Shown here in pieces: positions 3,775 through 29,093 of a stretch of DNA of 64,000 nt; the stretch's first letter is position 1; each line of letters starts with the position of its first letter. This DNA comes from Candidatus Bathyarchaeia archaeon (GTDB lineage Archaea; Thermoproteota; Bathyarchaeia; 40CM-2-53-6). The notes below the pieces were generated by a model, which ran no database searches, was not told the origin of the DNA, and worked only from the letters and a program-made list of their open reading frames with translations. The position numbers and the translations under genes were made by a program. The DNA lies in assembly GCA_049513715.1 (NCBI GenBank), contig JBEKVV010000001.1, positions 608,001-672,000 of the forward strand. The letters run 5' to 3'.

Positions 3775-4461
3775 TCACTTGAGCGGCGGTTTTCCCGCGT
3801 CTGCTAGTTTTTGATTGATGGCTGCTTTTTTCTGCTTTAGGCGTTCAGGTTGGACGTAGTAGTGGTCGAAGAGGCCATCTAGGACGTCGAGATTCGACTC
3901 GGCCTCTCCGGCTTCAACCTCAACGATCTCCCCAGAGGACTTAGATTTTATGGGGTGTGTAGCGAAGTTGCCAACGACCCTTATTGCATCTACTATTTCT
4001 CGTAGGCTGCTTGGGAGTGTGGGCAACACTTCGTCAATCTGCTGTGACAATTCCTTCGACTTGGTGTGCGCCGCTTGTGTCAAGACTGTTTGCAGACACC
4101 TTCTTGACAATGCGGCGCTTGCCATTGGACTTATGGCAAGCACTTCAGCCGACTCCCGGTATACCGTCCTGACGTGCTCAGGAACTTCAGGCGGAACAGG
4201 CCTGACTGCTCCTCCCCGCGGCCAAATGAACCAATTTTGAGTCACCTTTTCCTTATAGTCAGTGCCTGCAGGTGTAGCGACCACACATGTAACTACGAGT
4301 CGCTGGCAATTCGGGCAACTTTCGAAGTCCACGGCGATTCGTTCCGAATCACTCCTGCCTTCAAGGGCATTGACCCCCCAGTCTGTGGTTGTTCCAACTG
4401 GACCAACGCTTTGAGGTTTGAAGTACACATCGTGAAGGCAATGCGGACACTTTCCTCTCAT
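3775..4461 (-). CDS. DUF4145 (HEPN-like) protein with N-terminal Zn ribbon
   Basis: CPHC/CPNC; ASAALSRRCLQ; IRVVGNFATH. Confidence 0.85.
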   Translation of the reverse strand: MRGKCPHCLHDVYFKPQSVGPVGTTTDWGVNALEGRSDSERIAVDFESCPNCQRLVVTCVVATPAGTDYKEKVTQNWFIWPRGGAVRPVPPEVPEHVRTVYRESAEVLAISPMASAALSRRCLQTVLTQAAHTKSKELSQQIDEVLPTLPSSLREIVDAIRVVGNFATHPIKSKSSGEIVEVEAGEAESNLDVLDGLFDHYYVQPERLKQKKAAINQKLADAGKPPLK

Positions 4462-8735: not shown

Positions 8736-8770
8736 GAATGTGTGCGCACCACTAAGGGCACACACAAATG
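8736..8770 (+). repeat. degenerate TIR|TSD|TIR junction copy
   Basis: gaatgtgtg|CGCACCACTAaggg|cacacacaaat. Confidence 0.7.
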
Positions 8771-9056
8771 ACCGCGGCAGGGATTCGAGAGATTGGTGAA
8801 AAGTTCTGGTTTGGACATGTTGGAAAAGAATCGAGTTCAGGCATTAACGTGAGCCGCATCATCGCGTGTGCACAATTACGTTCACAACCGAAAACTCCAC
8901 AAGGCAAGACAAGTCCTACTATGGACCGCAGGATAACGCGAATGGGTGTGAGCCACAATAGAACGATCTAAGAATTACCACCGGCCATCGCCAGAGTTTG
9001 ATCTTCTACGAGAGGGCGCTCGTGCATTTAGTCGATGCGACCCGGACAAAGTCGAA

Positions 9057-10091
9057 TTGCTGATTCAGTCGTGCTATGAGAATTTCTTGGAGCTCAATCT
9101 TCAACACCCTCGGCTATTCGCCAAAGCAAAAGAAGATCACCTTGATTCCCAGAGTCTCCTGAAACGAGTGCTGGTGATTGCAATTCCACCAAAAACCGAA
9201 ACCAAGTGGGGCCAGAAGATTCTCTGCCTATTTATGTCATTTCAATATGCGGTTGAGGCAGTCATCGTCGCGCACCTCGAAATGAGGAAAGCCTGGCAGA
9301 AGTCTCTCTCTCGAAAGCATTTTTGGGAGATTGTTGATGATTACCGCAGGCGACTGCTGGACCTTTTCGGAGAGGTTGGGTTTGATCGTTCCGACGTCCA
9401 TTTTTTCATTAAGGGAGACGAGGTTGTGTGGCCCGTTAATGTCTCTGAGGTAGAAGCTCTCGACTATGTCGACGCGAATCTGCAGGCTGGCTTATGGGCA
9501 AAACTCAATGACGTTTTTGGCCTTTTTACCGTTCAGGCCTATGAGGCGGCGGAGATTGTTCGAAATAAAGGCGCCTTGTTTAAGGCATTATTCGATGGAA
9601 TACCGACTCGGTTCTTTGCTTCAAGGAGAAGTGTCAAGAAAAGCACTAGCGTGCGCACTGAAGAACGCAATAAACTACCAAAAATCGGACTCGTTCTCGG
9701 TCGAATCACTACAACAAGTTATGTCAAAGACGTTCCAAGTAGTTGGAGCGTCCCATTCACATTCAGAAATCACGATAAAGATGTGTTAGGAAGAGTGAGC
9801 AAGTCCAAGATATCTGTCGTTGTCCGACCCTATGTTTCAGGAATCATTCCCGAACGACACGGATTCGGCCCTGGCGAACTCGACGACTTTCTCATTCCAC
9901 CAGGTCGCACGGTCGTTGGTGTAGCAAATATCGGCATTCAGCCTTTGTTTGCGAGAAACAATTGGGAGGACGAGTATAGTCAAGCTTTCAATACAGGTGA
10001 TCTCAAAATCAAACTGCAAATCAGTTACGTAATAAGTGACGAGTTTGGTAGGATCAAGAAAGCTAGAGAGCGTAGACTTCGCGTTTCTTAG
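9057..10091 (+). CDS. hypothetical protein
   Basis: 344-aa ORF, no recognised motif. Confidence 0.6.
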   Translation: MLIQSCYENFLELNLQHPRLFAKAKEDHLDSQSLLKRVLVIAIPPKTETKWGQKILCLFMSFQYAVEAVIVAHLEMRKAWQKSLSRKHFWEIVDDYRRRLLDLFGEVGFDRSDVHFFIKGDEVVWPVNVSEVEALDYVDANLQAGLWAKLNDVFGLFTVQAYEAAEIVRNKGALFKALFDGIPTRFFASRRSVKKSTSVRTEERNKLPKIGLVLGRITTTSYVKDVPSSWSVPFTFRNHDKDVLGRVSKSKISVVVRPYVSGIIPERHGFGPGELDDFLIPPGRTVVGVANIGIQPLFARNNWEDEYSQAFNTGDLKIKLQISYVISDEFGRIKKARERRLRVS

Positions 10092-10099
10092 TCACTGGT

Positions 10100-10717
10100 T
10101 CAAATACCTAAGTATCTCCGAACAAAATCTATGATGACCTCAGCTGCTGGCGGACCTAACCTTGTCGCCATTTCCTTCACCCTGTTCAAACGACTAGGTC
10201 TGAGAAGATCCTTACCTTTCTCCTTCTCAAGGAGACGGAGCTCTTCTTTGATGGTGGCAGTTTGGTCTTTTGAAACAATTCTATCCAAATAGTCTTCGAG
10301 GTCTTTCAGCGAATTTACGGTGGTCGTTTGGTTCTGAGTTATGATTCCTCCAGAAGCTATCTGCCCACCGCTCACAGGTCCATTGACATTAATGATGTTA
10401 AAGTTAACAGCGAGATTCCCGCGTGCACGTCCCTCAACCGCCTCAATCCCGAAACTTGTTAAGCCAAGTAGGTGCGACCATTTCTTCGTCGTTCCAATTG
10501 ATCCTGTGGACTGACCCTTTACTAGATTTGAATCGATTAAATATTCGATGTTGAACTCTGCTAGTTCTTCGCTTATGGCAAGAAGTTTAGCGTATTCTGA
10601 AGGTTTTGTAAGAATCTCAGCTCCCAGCTGTTTCTTGTTGTACAATTCCTCAAGAATCTTGGCTCTGATGTCCTGATTGCTCAGACCTGACAAAGCCCTT
10701 ATGCACTGGCCGTCCAT
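10100..10717 (-). CDS. hypothetical protein with N-terminal winged helix
   Basis: IRAKILEELY...FNIEYLIDSNLV...LTSFGIEAVE wHTH pattern. Confidence 0.65.
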   Translation of the reverse strand: MDGQCIRALSGLSNQDIRAKILEELYNKKQLGAEILTKPSEYAKLLAISEELAEFNIEYLIDSNLVKGQSTGSIGTTKKWSHLLGLTSFGIEAVEGRARGNLAVNFNIINVNGPVSGGQIASGGIITQNQTTTVNSLKDLEDYLDRIVSKDQTATIKEELRLLEKEKGKDLLRPSRLNRVKEMATRLGPPAAEVIIDFVRRYLGI

Positions 10718-10835
10718 CCTACGAGCTCAGATTTGAACCGCTTGGTGTGTTATTGTGCGCACCACGATACCCACACACACAAATCAAAGCCTGAACGACC
10801 GTTGAAATTCCGTCCCCCGAGCGATGCCTCGACTT

Positions 10836-11112
10836 CTATTTCGTCAAGCCACCCTGCTTCCGGAGTCTCTCCACCAGTTCCCGGTATCGGGGGTCAGCCC
10901 TTGCCTTAGCGAAGAGAGGCGCGTGCATCACGGTTGAGGCAATTATCGTATGGGCTTCGAGCGCCTTGTTCATGTACTCGAAGTAGGAGTCGAGGTCTCC
11001 GAGGGCGTGGTAGACGTACGCAATGAAGTTGAAGCCGATCGGACCTATGTTGGCGGTCTCGATCTTCTTGATTGCGAGGAGCGCCCGTTCCCTGTCGCCT
11101 TCCAGAGCCGCG
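10836..11112 (-). pseudogene. C-terminal fragment of a TPR protein (adenylate/guanylate cyclase-TPR type tail)
   Basis: ALGDLDSYFEYMNKALE...PLFAKARADPRYRELV; visibly higher GC than flanks; no native start. Confidence 0.7.
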
Positions 11113-11280
11113 TTCAGCAAAATTAACCTCGCGAGCGCTTCCCATCAAGAAACGACTCAGTTCAGTCGCCTTCAGTTCGATAATAGTATCCCACTTCCAC
11201 CTGCGGCCCTTGTAGTTTACGCCTGAATTGAAGTGTTGACGGAGAAGATTGATGAACCGTTGCTTGCCTTCCGCTTCGAG
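11113..11280 (-). pseudogene. cas1: casposase-type Cas1 C-terminal remnant (56 codons, mostly outside the ORF track)
   Basis: LEAEGKQRFINLLRQHFNSGVNYKGRRWKWDTIIELKATELSRFLMGSAREVNFAE resembles the FN..V.Y.G...W..II..K..EL..YL.G....DF pattern of archaeal solo/casposon Cas1. Confidence 0.7.
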
Positions 11281-11423
11281 AGATTCGCTAGACTACTTTC
11301 AAGGTCACATATTCAACCGTAGAGAGGCCTGGTAGGTGAGGCAGGCACGTTGACCCTCGCCTGCGAGATATATTCTGTATATTGGCAACCATTAAACCGA
11401 CTTGACGATTTGTACTCGGTTCT

Positions 11424-11624
11424 ATGAGCCACCATTGTAAATTGTGTCACCCACCTAAGATATTTCGATCAATCGACCGACTGCATGAACATCATTGGAC
11501 GACTCATCGACGATGGTGCTGCAATGTTTGTCATCATTTGAGTCGACTTCACTCAGGATTCCATGGCTGTGCAGTCTGTGGTTGCCGATACTCGAAGAAG
11601 CAGCAAGAGCGCCTTCGTGACTAG
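11424..11624 (+). CDS. small C2H2/Cys-His-rich zinc-finger protein
   Basis: CKLC..F...L..H....H followed by CNVC.H and CAVC. Confidence 0.6.
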   Translation: MSHHCKLCHPPKIFRSIDRLHEHHWTTHRRWCCNVCHHLSRLHSGFHGCAVCGCRYSKKQQERLRD

Positions 11625-11696
11625 AACTCCTTCAGGGCGTCGGAAGTTGCTTATTCGAGTGTGAGTGCTATGTTGTATCTGAGAGGTGACTAATGT

Positions 11697-11813
11697 ATGG
11701 CAAAGCAAAGTAGGGGAGCTAAGAAAGCGTGGACGGCTGCTAGAGATAAGAAGGTGACGAAAGCACGCGAGAAGAAGAAAGAACGCAAAGCCGCCCTTTC
11801 CACGTATCAATAG
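11697..11813 (+). CDS. 38-aa highly basic micro-protein
   Basis: GAGGTGA RBS upstream; MAKQSRGAKKAWTAARDKKVTKAREKKKERKAALSTYQ*. Confidence 0.45.
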   Translation: MAKQSRGAKKAWTAARDKKVTKAREKKKERKAALSTYQ

Positions 11814-11919
11814 GAACGCGCTGTTCTGACTTGAACCGTTTTTTCCGTTTCGGCAGACTCATTCTGAAAATGATGTGAATAACGGGTAACAGATCAAGAA
11901 GGGTAACGTAGCGGGACGC

Positions 11920-12009
11920 TTGTGAGGAGTATCACTGGTGCGAGCATCGCAATTTGAACTACCAATTTTGTGTGTGTGGGTATAGTGGTGCGGGCAACAG
12001 AATTTGAAC
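11920..12009 (-). repeat. two tandem ~50-bp tRNA-3'-end mimic + TSD + TIR-start units
   Basis: Minus strand GTTCAAATTCTGTTGCCCGCACCACTATACC-CACACACACAAAA, then GTTCAAATTGCGATGCTCGCACCAGTGATAC. Confidence 0.75.
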
Positions 12010-12115
12010 CATCGTCGTTCAGGCGTTATTTTGTGTGTGTGCGCACCACTAGACCCGCCCTATCGGAAAAATACGAGTGAACAGTTGGGGTTTGGTGCTG
12101 TTTGTGGCTGAGTGG

Positions 12116-14172: not shown

Positions 14173-14423
14173 CACCCACCCTCCCGGAAGGCCAATCCCT
14201 CGCATCCAAGGACGATGTAAGCAACACGCGCTTCCATGACATTATTGAAATGCTTGCGGAGCACTTATGAGAACGCAGACTAGGACCGGCCACGTTTTTC
14301 CATCTGATGGCAAAATGCCCCTCTGATGGTTCTCACTTTTCACGAGATTTAGACAGTATTCGCCGCTCATGCGGAAATCGTAAAAGACTGTCAGTTATAG
14401 AATCACAATCGCAAGCGGCGGAC

Positions 14424-15944
14424 ATGGGAAGGATTATCGGCCCATCGCGAGCGGTCATACTACTGTTCTTTCTGTTCGTCTTTATAGTGAACTCTTCCAA
14501 TTATCCGAAGGCAAAGGGGCAGTCGTCTTACAACCTGTCGATCACCGCTCAGACGTCTAGCACCGAGATGGGGTCCGCAGTTGACTTGAATGGGCAATTA
14601 ACTCCCTTGCCCCCTGTGCCCACCAATGTCTGCGTCCCGGCCTGCGTGAGGCTCCAATTGCAGGAGATGAACCTAGATTCACAAATCTGGAATGACCTCG
14701 AACAATACACTGAGATTTGTGGACCCGGCGTTACTGGTACAGGTTGTCAAGACTTCCATAGCGATGGAAGCTTTCGAATAGTCTGGACTCCGGATATGGC
14801 TGGCAAATTCATGGTAAGAACCAAGCTTGTTTCTTGGACCCTTGTTTGCAACGGTGGACAGATTTGCACATCGCAGCGGAACGTGCTGGCGACAAGCAAC
14901 GACCTGGGGTGGTTCGAAGTGCAACCAAGGTCTTTCGTCGGCATCCCAATCTACTCCAACTCGGAATGGAACATGGCCGTCGGGTTTGGTTGGGTTGGCC
15001 TATTCTTCGGTTCCATCGGTGTGCTGCTCTGGGCCGTAAGTAGACGACAAAATCCTTTTCGAAAAGAAACCGGTCCGAGCATGCGTGTTACGGCTAAACT
15101 CAAAAGCACTGACGATAGCCCGGACGATTTAGTTGGTGGTCTAACTGAAGTCAAGAAAGCTCTTGCTGAAGCAATTGAGCTGCCGCTAATGCGGCCAGAT
15201 CTCTTTGAGAGGTACCGTGTGGTGCCCCCTACCAAAGGACTGCTTCTGTACGGTCCACCCGGCTGCGGCAAGACACTTCTTGCAAAATCTATCGCGGCTA
15301 AAGGAAAGATAGCGTTCGTCTATTGTCGCTCCACAGACATATTCACGAAATACTACAGTGAAAGCGCCACGCGCGTAAGGGAGTTGTTTGAAAACGCACG
15401 GAAGAAGGCCCCGTGCGTGCTGTTCTTCGACGAGATTGATGCTCTCGTTCCAACTAGAGGCTATTCAGACGACGCGACAGCGCGAGAAGACGTCAGAGTA
15501 ACTAGCGAATTCCTCGCGCAGATGGATGGTCTTACTCCACTTGAGCGCGTGATCGTGATTGCTGCAACGAACCGTCCTGATGCCATAGACCCAGCCCTTA
15601 TGAGGCCAGGAAGATTCGATAGGATATTATACGTTCCACCTCCCGATTTGGAGGCACGCACTGCCATCTTGCGAAATAGTATGCATGGTGTACCGAAAAA
15701 TGATGACGTGAATCTCAATGAGATTGCCCGAAGTACTGATGGCTACTCTGGAGCGGACCTCGTAGCTCTTTGCCGCGAGGCCAAGATGCGCGCGATGAAA
15801 GCAGAAGTTGAAGGCTCACCGCGCCCTGTCATGCCAAGAGATTTCGCAGATGCTCTGACTGTTGTGAAACCTAGCATCTCGCAAGCAATGCTTGAGAAAT
15901 TTGAAGCTTTTGTGAACTCGTTTAGAAGGTACAGAGAGAGCTAG
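14424..15944 (+). CDS. membrane-anchored AAA+ ATPase (Cdc48-like domain) with Cys-rich predicted ectodomain
   Basis: Signal/TM helix, Cys-rich beta region, second TM, GPPGCGKT, LFFDEID, ATNRPDAIDPALMRPGRFD. Confidence 0.85.
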   Translation: MGRIIGPSRAVILLFFLFVFIVNSSNYPKAKGQSSYNLSITAQTSSTEMGSAVDLNGQLTPLPPVPTNVCVPACVRLQLQEMNLDSQIWNDLEQYTEICGPGVTGTGCQDFHSDGSFRIVWTPDMAGKFMVRTKLVSWTLVCNGGQICTSQRNVLATSNDLGWFEVQPRSFVGIPIYSNSEWNMAVGFGWVGLFFGSIGVLLWAVSRRQNPFRKETGPSMRVTAKLKSTDDSPDDLVGGLTEVKKALAEAIELPLMRPDLFERYRVVPPTKGLLLYGPPGCGKTLLAKSIAAKGKIAFVYCRSTDIFTKYYSESATRVRELFENARKKAPCVLFFDEIDALVPTRGYSDDATAREDVRVTSEFLAQMDGLTPLERVIVIAATNRPDAIDPALMRPGRFDRILYVPPPDLEARTAILRNSMHGVPKNDDVNLNEIARSTDGYSGADLVALCREAKMRAMKAEVEGSPRPVMPRDFADALTVVKPSISQAMLEKFEAFVNSFRRYRES

Positions 15945-26452: not shown

Positions 26453-26800
26453 TTGAGAATTCCCGTAAAAAAGGCAATTCTCTCTCGCATGAACATACTT
26501 GAAGTCGAGGCCGGGACGAACGGTTATCATGGCGGAGATTCTGGTGGGGGTAGCCGAACCTACTTAGCTTTGAGAGACCGCGGTGCGACGACATGGCGGC
26601 TCAGGGTGAGAGACCGGTGTGGAAAGGACTGGATTTTCGAGCAGCCGGTCTCAGTTGAGATTACCGTGGGTGGCGACAGCGAACTTGACACTTTTCTCGA
26701 CGCCTTGAAGTTCTCCGCTCAAGCCCTAACAGATTTACTACGCCTTGAACACGCCGACAAGCCCACGCATGACGTATTCCACGACGTCGAGGTGGAGTAG
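26453..26800 (+). CDS. hypothetical MGE protein
   Basis: AGTNGYHGGDSGGGSRTY...GGDSELDTFLDALKF; abuts the prim-pol gene. Confidence 0.65.
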   Translation: MRIPVKKAILSRMNILEVEAGTNGYHGGDSGGGSRTYLALRDRGATTWRLRVRDRCGKDWIFEQPVSVEITVGGDSELDTFLDALKFSAQALTDLLRLEHADKPTHDVFHDVEVE

Positions 26801-26804
26801 TGGA

Positions 26805-29093
26805 TTGTCGAGTATGTTGCGCCTTGGGATGGCTGCGCTGCGCAAAGCGCTGAACCTATGGGCATACGACGACTACGTACAATTCTACGTTGATAACGAT
26901 TTTTGCATAATACCGATTATCCCCGAAACCAAGAAGCCGAACCTGAACGAATGGAAAGAGTTCCAGCAACGAAAGCCGAGTCCCGACGAAATTCAAGAAT
27001 GGTTCGGTGCGAAAGAGAGCCAACGCCGACCGAGCATTGCCGTAATTGCAGGTCGCATTTCAGATAACTTAGTGATAATTGACTTCGACGAACTGGAATG
27101 GTATTCAAAATTCTTTGCAGCGCCGTTCTTGACCACCGCTGAGATCGAAAGCACCACGTTAGTCGACAAGACAAGCCGTGGCGTGCACGTTTTCCTTCGC
27201 TCATACGTGCCAATGAAAAGCTACAACATTCCAGAACTGCACGTGAATGTGCAAAGCGAAGGCCGTTATGCGCTCGTGCCGCCAAGCATTCACCCGTCCG
27301 GTGCGCAGTACACATTTCTGACAGAACCAAGAGCACCCCGCCTAATCGAAAACCTGCCAGACGTTTTGAAGAACCGCATAGAAGGCATGAATTTCCAAGT
27401 GCCAGCGGTCTTAGACCCTATTGCTGAAGGCAACGTTCAGGTTCACGTTCGCCCTTGGCGACGTTTCCCGCCGCAAGTACAAGCGTACTTCGTTGACACG
27501 GAGATTGGAGATCGCCACCATAGGGCGGTCGGCATTGCTTCCACAATGCTGAACGAATGGAAATTCCCGCTAGAAATGGCAAGACAATGGTTGTATGAAT
27601 GGAACGACCTTGTGTTGAAGCGACCAATTCCCGTCGCCGATATTGACCACGCATTACACGAAGCACAAGCGAAAGGCTACGTGTACGGCAAACAAACCAT
27701 TCAACCGGCAGCACTGACCGACGACGAACAAAAGGCCAGCGAAGCCCTAGCGAAAGACCCAGCACTGTTATTCAAAGTGAAAACTGCACTTGGCGGCCTA
27801 GTGGGCGAAGACAACAACCGCTTGCTGCTATTCGTACTGAACCTTGCCAAGCAAAGCGTCGAAATTTCGGGGCAAAGCGCAGGCGGCAAAAGAACATTGG
27901 TCGACGAAGTGCTGCGGGGCTTCCCTGACGACTCATATCAGAAAGTAACGGGCGTCACTGACAAGGCGCTGCGCTATCTTGCTGAAAGCATTCGCACGCT
28001 TTACATTGCTGAACGTGGTGCGCTCGAATCACACGGCGAAGAAACAACTGCGGCGTTCGACGCCAAGATGGTCATTTCAGAAGGCAAACTAAGCATTCTC
28101 GTGCCAGAGAAAGACGAAGAAACAGGCAAAATAAAGTCGACCACGATTGAGACCAAGATCGAGAACATTATTTCCACTAGCACGCAACTGTCGCTGCCTG
28201 AAGAACTAGAAAATCGACTGTGGCGCACGAGCATTGACGACAGCGAAGGCCAGAACGCTAAGGTTCGTGATTACCTACTTGATTCGGCGGCGCAGGCCAA
28301 CGACGACAAGCCTGATTTTGCCCCGCAGAAACAGCAAGTACAAAGTCTCGTCAAACTGATTGAGGTTGAAGCACCGAAGGCCGTTATTGTTCCTTTCGCA
28401 CCGGCTCTGAAGTCGCTGTTACCGAGCGACAAAACACGGGTACGACGAGACACTACGAAGTTGCTTGCCCTGGTGCGATACATTGCTATTCTTCACTACA
28501 AGCAACGCCCAAGTTTCACAGGCAAGAAAGGCATTGTGCATGTCGTTGCCCTTCCCGCCGACCTTTACGCTGCGCTAAGAATTGGTTATGCGGCGTTCGT
28601 TGAAACTCGAACCGGTTTCAATGCCTCAATTCGTCGTGGTTACGAGATAGCAAAGACGCTTTCAGAAATTACCACGGAAGCCGTTCAAAATGCTGGGGGC
28701 GTTAGCGACCGCACTGCCATACGGTACGTCAAGGCACTCAGGAAGCAAGGCATTCTTATTGAATCTGAGAAACGGGGACGAATCCCAATTTATACATTGG
28801 CGCCAAATGCGGCGAAACTTGTCGTCGTCGAAAAGGCGGACGTTCTGGGCCGTTTTGATTGGAAGGAGCTTGAATTAGCCTGCGAAATGGTCGCCGCCAC
28901 GGGGTCCGTAAAATCGCCGGTCATCGACCCGTTGACTGGCGACCTCGTGGACCTGATTGGCGGCGATCATAATTCCAAGGCTGAAACGGCGGACAATCAA
29001 GAAACAACCCAAGAAATGCACTCAGAAATGGCCGCCAAGCCACTTGACGACTTTTCGGCGTTGGCGGCGACGAACACGAGCATTGGGAAGTAG
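26805..29093 (+). CDS. bifunctional primase-polymerase fused to AAA+ helicase-like domain and wHTH (start uncertain; ORF open from 26745)
   Basis: IIPI..TKKP..WKEFQ, IIDFD, TSRGVHVF, ALVPPSIHPSG; GQSAGGK, LYIAE, ELENR, RVRRD. Confidence 0.88.
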   Translation: MSSMLRLGMAALRKALNLWAYDDYVQFYVDNDFCIIPIIPETKKPNLNEWKEFQQRKPSPDEIQEWFGAKESQRRPSIAVIAGRISDNLVIIDFDELEWYSKFFAAPFLTTAEIESTTLVDKTSRGVHVFLRSYVPMKSYNIPELHVNVQSEGRYALVPPSIHPSGAQYTFLTEPRAPRLIENLPDVLKNRIEGMNFQVPAVLDPIAEGNVQVHVRPWRRFPPQVQAYFVDTEIGDRHHRAVGIASTMLNEWKFPLEMARQWLYEWNDLVLKRPIPVADIDHALHEAQAKGYVYGKQTIQPAALTDDEQKASEALAKDPALLFKVKTALGGLVGEDNNRLLLFVLNLAKQSVEISGQSAGGKRTLVDEVLRGFPDDSYQKVTGVTDKALRYLAESIRTLYIAERGALESHGEETTAAFDAKMVISEGKLSILVPEKDEETGKIKSTTIETKIENIISTSTQLSLPEELENRLWRTSIDDSEGQNAKVRDYLLDSAAQANDDKPDFAPQKQQVQSLVKLIEVEAPKAVIVPFAPALKSLLPSDKTRVRRDTTKLLALVRYIAILHYKQRPSFTGKKGIVHVVALPADLYAALRIGYAAFVETRTGFNASIRRGYEIAKTLSEITTEAVQNAGGVSDRTAIRYVKALRKQGILIESEKRGRIPIYTLAPNAAKLVVVEKADVLGRFDWKELELACEMVAATGSVKSPVIDPLTGDLVDLIGGDHNSKAETADNQETTQEMHSEMAAKPLDDFSALAATNTSIGK

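Follow-up and report, generated by a model that had tools for sequence, protein, structure and literature searches.

We found that a 1.27-kb unit within a 64,000-nucleotide stretch of a Bathyarchaeia contig (referred to here as the window) can with good probability be read as a decayed, non-autonomous composite from PolB-less, family-2-like Bathyarchaeia casposons. The locus is a relic of an abundant, PolB-less casposon family that is apparently undescribed, and its value lies in direct sequence evidence linking the repeat family of the source genome (G000) to a casposase. Features of the unit and of its left neighbour are listed in Table 1.

Table 1. Features of the unit and of the adjoining cassette, in window coordinates.
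Feature	Position	Strand	Description
Outer border of neighbouring cassette	8745..8758	+	14-bp core CGCACCACTAAGGG, then CACAC end; cassette is 8759-10757
Worn end of left neighbour cassette	10728..10757	-	Decayed CA run and GGTTCAAAT; read from sequence
Left 14-bp target core, putative TSD	10758..10771	+	CGCACCACGATACC
Left TIR	10772..10810	+	28 bp, CACACACACAAA...GCCTGAACGAC, then worn T-loop-like GTTGAAATT at 10801-10809
3' tail of TPR-ended cargo gene	10830..11112	-	94-aa frame 11120-10836
Casposase (Cas1) remnant	11113..11280	-	168 bp, no start codon; residues ~288-343 of ~405
Conserved cargo module	11301..11862	+	96% nt identity to G004 over 11301-11862; 90% to G014 over 11301-11830
66-aa Cys/His-rich microprotein	11424..11624	+	No Pfam, NCBIfam or PHROGs match
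38-aa lysine/arginine-rich microprotein	11697..11813	+	Behind GAGGTGA ribosome-binding-like motif
Inner target mimic 2	11929..11960	-	Leader AGTTCAAATT-N8 and core CGCACCAGTGATAC (11942-11929); no TIR after core
Second, nested TIR end	11965..11978	-	CACACACACAAAAT
Inner 14-bp core, used target	11979..11992	-	CGCACCACTATACC; inverted relative to outer pair
Target mimic 1 leader, tRNA T-loop/acceptor-like	11993..12010	-	GGTTCAAATT-CTGTTGCC
Right (outer) TIR	12014..12041	-	Inverted-repeat match to left TIR
Right 14-bp core	12042..12055	+	CGCACCACTAGACC; most frequent core of the genome, 12 of 115 ends

The outer ends stood as originally predicted. The TIRs at 10772-10799 and 12014-12041, both starting CACACACACAAA, were complementary at 25 of 28 positions, and the 14-mers CGCACCACGATACC and CGCACCACTAGACC directly abutted them with 12 of 14 bases identical, and CGCACCACTATACC was present on the minus strand at 11992-11979. 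The right end was observed to be a stack, reading inward as TIR (12041), mimic, core (11992), TIR (11978), mimic and core (11942). Within mimic 1, TCAAATT occupied -15 to -9 from the core, the position given in the main text of PMC6614799. The inner pair of cores, at 10758 and 11992, was identical at 13 of 14 positions and inverted. Position 10758 is probably a junction common to two units, because the degenerate end of the left neighbour abuts it. This neighbouring cassette (8745-10757), with a fourth core and a worn end, carries genes of 344 and 205 aa, neither assigned to a family above cut-off. ARAGORN finds no tRNA in the window, so the unit does not sit at a tRNA gene. A stretch of ~77 bp with a T-loop-like piece (11830-11906) was missing from locus L067 and from lower-depth contigs of three runs, and its presence or absence is a strain-level indel. 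The boundaries proposed in the original prediction are plausible.

A start-less frame inside the unit had been claimed to resemble Cas1, and this likeness held, with the frame on the minus strand; judged from its sequence, the 56-aa peptide is a true casposase remnant. A search of the PDB placed 6OPM first (E=0.0076) and the Cas1 entry 4N06 third (E=0.27) among six matches at E<=10; the search output labels 6OPM just 'Cas1', and we take it to be the M. mazei casposase structure. The peptide was 55-71% identical to ~405-aa casposases of same-genus genomes, aligning to their residues 288-343, and a 406-aa protein named Cas1 spanned it at 64% identity. Matches were observed in 11 of the 22 same-genus genomes, many inside open frames of 400-440 aa. 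NCBIfam reported TIGR00287 cas1 at E=0.0074, below its cut-off, and Pfam gave no Cas1 match for the peptide, only AAA_7 at E=0.022. Neither the catalytic residues nor the C-terminal HTH are included in the peptide. The remnant points toward the left TIR, and the order of cas1, cargo and end is that of L049 and L050. A translated cas1-TPR fusion was ruled out, as the frames differ and there is no start codon.

Five cas1 fragments were observed in the source genome, all from the 3' half of the gene, and for four of them the nearest end is at most 1.8 kb away. An intact casposase was not found there, Pfam Cas_Cas1 giving zero matches on the whole genome. A 5'-truncated cas1 with one to three cargo genes after it and a site beyond them was also observed at L034-L038 and at C1:893791, C3:524391 and C5:10949 of the source genome, and from this recurrence we conclude that one arm has been retained repeatedly.

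The original prediction of a single internally deleted element was not supported. Besides the nested ends on the right, the interior is, as read from its similarities, a chimera of three unrelated pieces joined together: the tail of a TPR gene, 168 bp of cas1 and a two-microprotein module. The TPR tail frame matched NF047558 TPR_END_plus in NCBIfam at E=1.2e-6, under cut-off. At the nucleotide level the tail is 74-84% identical to three paralogues in the source genome and 81% identical to a further one, in L067; of the four, those at C5:22549 and in L067 adjoin a CACAC end. The cargo module was matched in part or whole in 15 of the 22 same-genus genomes and is 90-96% identical in its closest relatives, against about 72% for the cas1 piece. 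Both chimeric junctions were spanned by difference-free contigs in three runs and tiled in a fourth, all of which may be the source sample.

The claim of microprotein cargo was upheld by frame conservation in relatives, and the cargo is real as predicted from these frames. The 66-aa frame was open in 11 of 13 distinct readable homologous stretches, with one more at a locus edge, and the 38-aa frame in 12 of 12, with the start region changed in four. Changes by codon position were 64/37/89 for the 66-aa frame and 20/13/33 for the 38-aa frame, from rows that are non-independent; this third-position bias is mild, so the coding claim leans mainly on frame conservation. The 66-aa microprotein is likely zinc-binding. 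It belongs to a family of 64-66 aa Cys/His-rich proteins (C4:240074-240268 in the source genome; 11424-11624 in the window) that is widespread in the genus and matched nothing in Pfam, NCBIfam or PHROGs. These databases likewise gave no family above cut-off for the TPR tail, for the microproteins or for most genes of the island.

The unit lies within a larger island of mostly unannotated genes (2300-31200) between rps3ae (1554-2186) and a nucleotidyltransferase (32234). The island holds a Prim-Pol gene (26745-29093, PF09250), a DUF4145 gene (3775-4461) and an AAA ATPase whose N-terminal region is long (14307-15944), and no tRNA was found at its borders. The casposon debris may be nested inside another integrated element.

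Casposon-type ends and a 14-bp target logic at tRNA 3' ends had also been claimed, and both gained support from a tRNA site and from the leaders of the source genome. The tRNA gene at C3:86163-86290, called by ARAGORN at relaxed settings as Val with an intron, ends in CGCACCA, and a CACAC end follows 7 bp later, exactly 14 bp from CGCACCA. Among 45 leaders picked by core and TIR only, the consensus at -18 to -9 was GGTTCAAATT, and TCAAAT was observed at -15 to -10 with at most one mismatch in 29. As the main texts of the published studies describe, the A. boonei casposase depends on a TCAAATC motif located 8 bp upstream of its TSD and accepts variation at the far end of the TSD (PMC6614799), while M. 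mazei TSDs are 14 bp, start with CGCA and need upstream tRNA sequence (PMC4779613, PMC6977970). Residues R191 and R192 contact CGCA in the M. mazei structure, according to the main text of PMC6977970, and by residue count they are seemingly not conserved in the alignment of the L053 casposase with 6OPM, which counts against the casposon-decay reading.

Pairing of the T-stem was decayed in most mimics, with 32 of 51 motif hits retaining at most three of five pairs, and it is therefore the DNA motif, and not the tRNA fold, that is kept. A full internal mimic was observed 32-57 bp inside the terminus at 26 of 115 ends, and in 17 of these 26 another TIR follows. The TIR types CACAC, CCGCCG, CGACGA and GGGG share the same target, as expected for transposon ends. 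A GGGG-starting end was observed at a like target mimic at L032:3752, 6 kb from a divergent casposase (42% to P0001), so several casposase types may use one target.

We examined 20 casposase loci with a full or near-full gene. Four had inverted ends with identical 14-bp direct flanks: L053 (9,014 bp, CACAC TIRs matching at 22 of 22, at a tRNA-like 3' end), L050 (9,004 bp, CACAC ends), L049 (8,980 bp, CGACGA ends) and L054 (7,144 bp, CCGCCG ends). A fifth with identical flanks, L045, comes from the same genus, is 8.6 kb long with short CACAC ends, and its flanks are the 14-mer found in the window at 11992-11979. The intact CACAC-ended elements L045, L050 and L053 encode a full Cas1-family casposase, so the outcome that would have refuted the original prediction, another recombinase in its place, did not arise. 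No matched end pair with identical 14-bp flanks was found within the DNA examined for 14 of the 20 loci, which counts against the casposon-decay reading. A 9-kb element at L067:6887-15957 has matching CCGCCC TIRs with both ends joined to the 5' side of different, inverted cores, which suggests that one end was re-joined after insertion.

The L053 casposase aligned with 6OPM over residues 5-401, including the HTH region, at E=1.8e-75, the next Cas1 being at 2.2e-22. Pfam Cas_Cas1 was above cut-off for the full genes of the intact relatives, and the GFLH and DL.EP motifs together with E167 were nearly invariant in relatives of the casposase. L045, L049, L050 and L053 have in common a small basic protein, a ~120-aa DxD...GxH protein and a P-loop ATPase, and an HNH gene was observed in one of six elements (L067). 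We found the ~120-aa gene at 13 distinct loci, in one case as a fragment, but in none of G000, L054 and L067. Its product looks primase-like, though fold searches gave it no significant match. D14-x-D16, G54-x-H56 and D79/D80 were invariant in 11 sequences, the best Foldseek match was a LigD polymerase domain at a non-significant E=0.019, and the nearest named Atlas cluster was PF24387 at 0.92 (169 features). VIA had the best Z at 5.9, with AsfvPrimPol at Z 5.6 (rmsd 3.3, 100 aligned), tied with unrelated folds. Cargo of the intact relatives also included SIR2, TIR-domain, OLD-like TOPRIM and HEPN-like genes.

A relaxed census of the source genome gave 115 such ends in 34 clusters, against five in the reversed genome, and a core-based census gave 88 sites. 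The pattern CGCACCA-N7-CACACAC was observed 43 times there and was present in all 22 same-genus genomes, with one control match in 41 genomes. Of 251 genomes in the class, 32 contained a stricter end pattern, and 29 of these 32 belong to the same order as the window. Relatives carrying this casposase were titled Bathyarchaeia at 26 of 28 loci, which is the basis for the host assignment. In the cores, the first seven bases are nearly fixed, in part because of how they were searched for, and the last seven scatter around CTAGACC. Completeness of the assembly is 99.4%, with a flag for 8.79% contamination, so some ends may be from another strain. Site clusters often sit at or near contig ends (C1, C2, C4, C7, C10, C11), and islands and any intact casposase may therefore be unassembled.

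The favored origin, decay of PolB-less casposons into a composite, would run as follows. A ~405-aa casposase with a C-terminal HTH, going by characterised homologues, would join ends of the CACACAC... type to a tRNA-3'-end target, reading it as a linear DNA motif with a GGTTCAAAT leader followed by CGCACCA, and cuts 14 bp apart would duplicate the 14-mer. With copies of the target inside the ends, new copies would insert beside and into old ones, yielding TIR-core-TIR junctions and nested ends such as 11929-12041. Deletions and end-mediated rearrangement or single-end re-joining, of which L067 is a likely case, could then scramble orientation and fuse pieces of units. Here a right arm of cas1, cargo gene and TIR would have been trimmed to 168 bp of cas1 and the gene tail and joined to a microprotein cassette. 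The unit would be mobile only in trans, upon arrival of an autonomous copy, because it lacks an enzyme of its own and the assembly yielded no intact casposase. The core pairs place a burden on this reading: the 21 innermost inward-facing end pairs in the source genome comprised 9 with direct and 12 with inverted cores, one of the 9 direct pairs being identical, and in the relatives' loci two of 13 direct pairs were identical and 6 of 19 pairs were inverted. With few identical direct pairs and many inverted ones, casposon decay would need much later rearrangement.

Tentatively, and with the odds somewhat against it, the ends could make up a self-propagating Cas1-driven cassette system, in which the landing pad lies inside the terminus, a visiting casposase inserts, excises and inverts cassettes in trans, and the host acquires a cargo store much like that of an integron. 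If so, the repeats of 46-71 bp from core to core (11929-12055) would represent a naturally occurring intermediate linking casposons to CRISPR-like leader-repeat arrays. A system of this integron-like kind that is still live, with a casposase in trans excising, inverting and reinserting TIR-bounded cassettes at 14-bp cores while the host keeps arrays for their cargo, we regard as unlikely. It would account for the cassette-sized spacing of the ends (adjacent ends are separated by <=2.5 kb in 71 cases, and 32 of these gaps measure 0.4-2.5 kb, room for about one or two genes), for inverted-core pairs being as common as direct ones, including the inner pair, for the end motif in every same-genus genome and for the microprotein module being better conserved than the cas1 piece. 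The main text of PMC10359463 also describes M. mazei casposons that excise leaving one empty site and mini-casposons that move in trans. Against this, two of the genes in the unit are broken, G000 yielded no intact casposase, contigs of four runs (contigs drop rare variants) showed no long-flanked joint from excision or inversion, and the same layout is explained by nested insertion and decay.

A simpler history would have one classical PolB casposon insert a single time, generate this TSD and then lose its interior together with polB; this is less probable still. The two outer ends are TSD-compatible in orientation, share one TIR subtype and rank each other within the top four of 114 ends, although neither is the other's best match. 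The flanking 14-mers, originally taken as one TSD, are not demonstrable as such, given a background of 16.5% of random core pairs in the source genome matching at >=12 of 14 positions and no empty site; since the 14-mer recurs genome-wide, their 12/14 identity is weak evidence of one insertion. The right flank matched none of the 22 genus genomes and the left flank four, over only 30-38 bp at the repeat. Contigs of the four runs, which may all be the source sample, gave 13 joints, 12 of them at or near repeats or cargo and with sides of 20-41 nt, and none was accepted as an empty site. That no empty site was found counts against treating insertion at this locus as demonstrated. The interior, moreover, comes from three sources.

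The PolB part of this history is largely refuted, as is the loss implied by the original wording of an internally deleted casposon with no PolB, because no PolB was found inside six casposase elements. Searches by tblastn with four host PolB proteins against 48 loci gave matches only outside the delimited elements. Among ORFs of at least 80 aa, Pfam named no PolB in the 49 scanned out of 56 from five elements, the other seven being short or overlapping, nor in the 11 from L045. As no PolB was found in the intact relatives either, it was probably never present. A PolB gene at C3:77949 was ruled out as a casposon gene, lying among ribosomal-protein and other host-like genes with no cas1.

That the repeats are attachment sites of a tyrosine integrase targeting tRNA 3' ends, with the cas1 piece a passenger, is highly improbable: the source genome does have two tyrosine-integrase genes that pass the Pfam cut-off, and one of them (C5:218633) is close to both a site cluster and a tRNA end, but none lies in the window, the intact elements that have such ends between identical 14-mers code for a casposase (L045, L050 and L053), and differing TIR types at one target fit transposon ends. 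In the scanned ORFs of the intact elements, Pfam identified neither a DDE transposase nor a tyrosine integrase.

It has been proposed that the CRISPR spacer integrase, leader and repeats derive from casposons. In the family to which we assign this relic, a close relative of the one casposase with a solved structure runs PolB-less elements, with about a hundred ends in one genome and the end family concentrated in one order of Bathyarchaeia. It shows non-autonomous casposons as they occur in nature, along with repeated leader-target units and cargo islands that are the work of Cas1, and offers a testable set of enzyme, end and target. Casposons are described in the main text of PMC6452270 as invariably PolB-carrying. 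In largely open-access main texts we found no description of this Bathyarchaeia family or of target mimics within casposon ends; the supplementary tables of PMC4779613 and PMC9755687 could list PolB-less elements.

Among known systems, several resemble parts of what we observed. Tandem casposons and solo TIRs are already published for Methanosarcina (PMC4779613) and Thaumarchaeota (PMC6563490), by the main texts of these reports. The engineered M. mazei mini-casposon, as the main text of PMC10359463 presents it, has the same arrangement of TSD-TIR-cargo-TIR-TSD without a casposase and was moved in trans; unlike that laboratory construct, the unit here is natural, chimeric and known from sequence alone. 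The proposed 'family 5' casposases of hot springs, described in the main text of PMC9755687 as stand-alone Cas1 with TIRs, mostly without PolB and proposed to be non-self-replicating, are alike in their stand-alone Cas1 with TIRs and in that PolB was not found. They differ in being near type I-A Cas1 and without HTH, whereas an HTH region is present in the enzyme here, which resembles 6OPM much more than it does CRISPR Cas1; the main text of PMC9755687 has no occurrence of Bathyarchaeia or TSDs.

The closest comparison is with family 2 casposons of M. mazei and A. boonei, which by the main texts of PMC4779613, PMC6977970 and PMC6614799 share with this family a Cas1-family integrase with a C-terminal HTH region, TIRs, a 14-bp duplication starting with CGCA, a tRNA 3'-end target with the T-loop leader motif at -15 to -9, tandem insertion at one target and solo TIR remnants. 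Unlike those descriptions, the ends here are short CA repeats with spare target sites inside them, and about a hundred per genome bound cassettes of one or two genes. The universal gene set of family 2 is Cas1, PolB, HNH and two HTH proteins (PMC9939771); the intact Bathyarchaeia relatives depart from it, as they were found without PolB and with HNH in one of six elements, and most have a small primase-like gene and a P-loop ATPase. The likeness to family 2 is one of similarity ranking.

More distant parallels are integron cassette arrays and MITEs, the former with rows of small cargo genes between repeated sites and the latter being non-autonomous elements defined by their ends. Tn7-type islands, compared with casposons in the main text of PMC4779613, likewise pile up at one target. 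Unlike integrons and Tn7, the system described here has Cas1 as its enzyme, and not IntI or TnsB, and its landing site is carried in the element ends.
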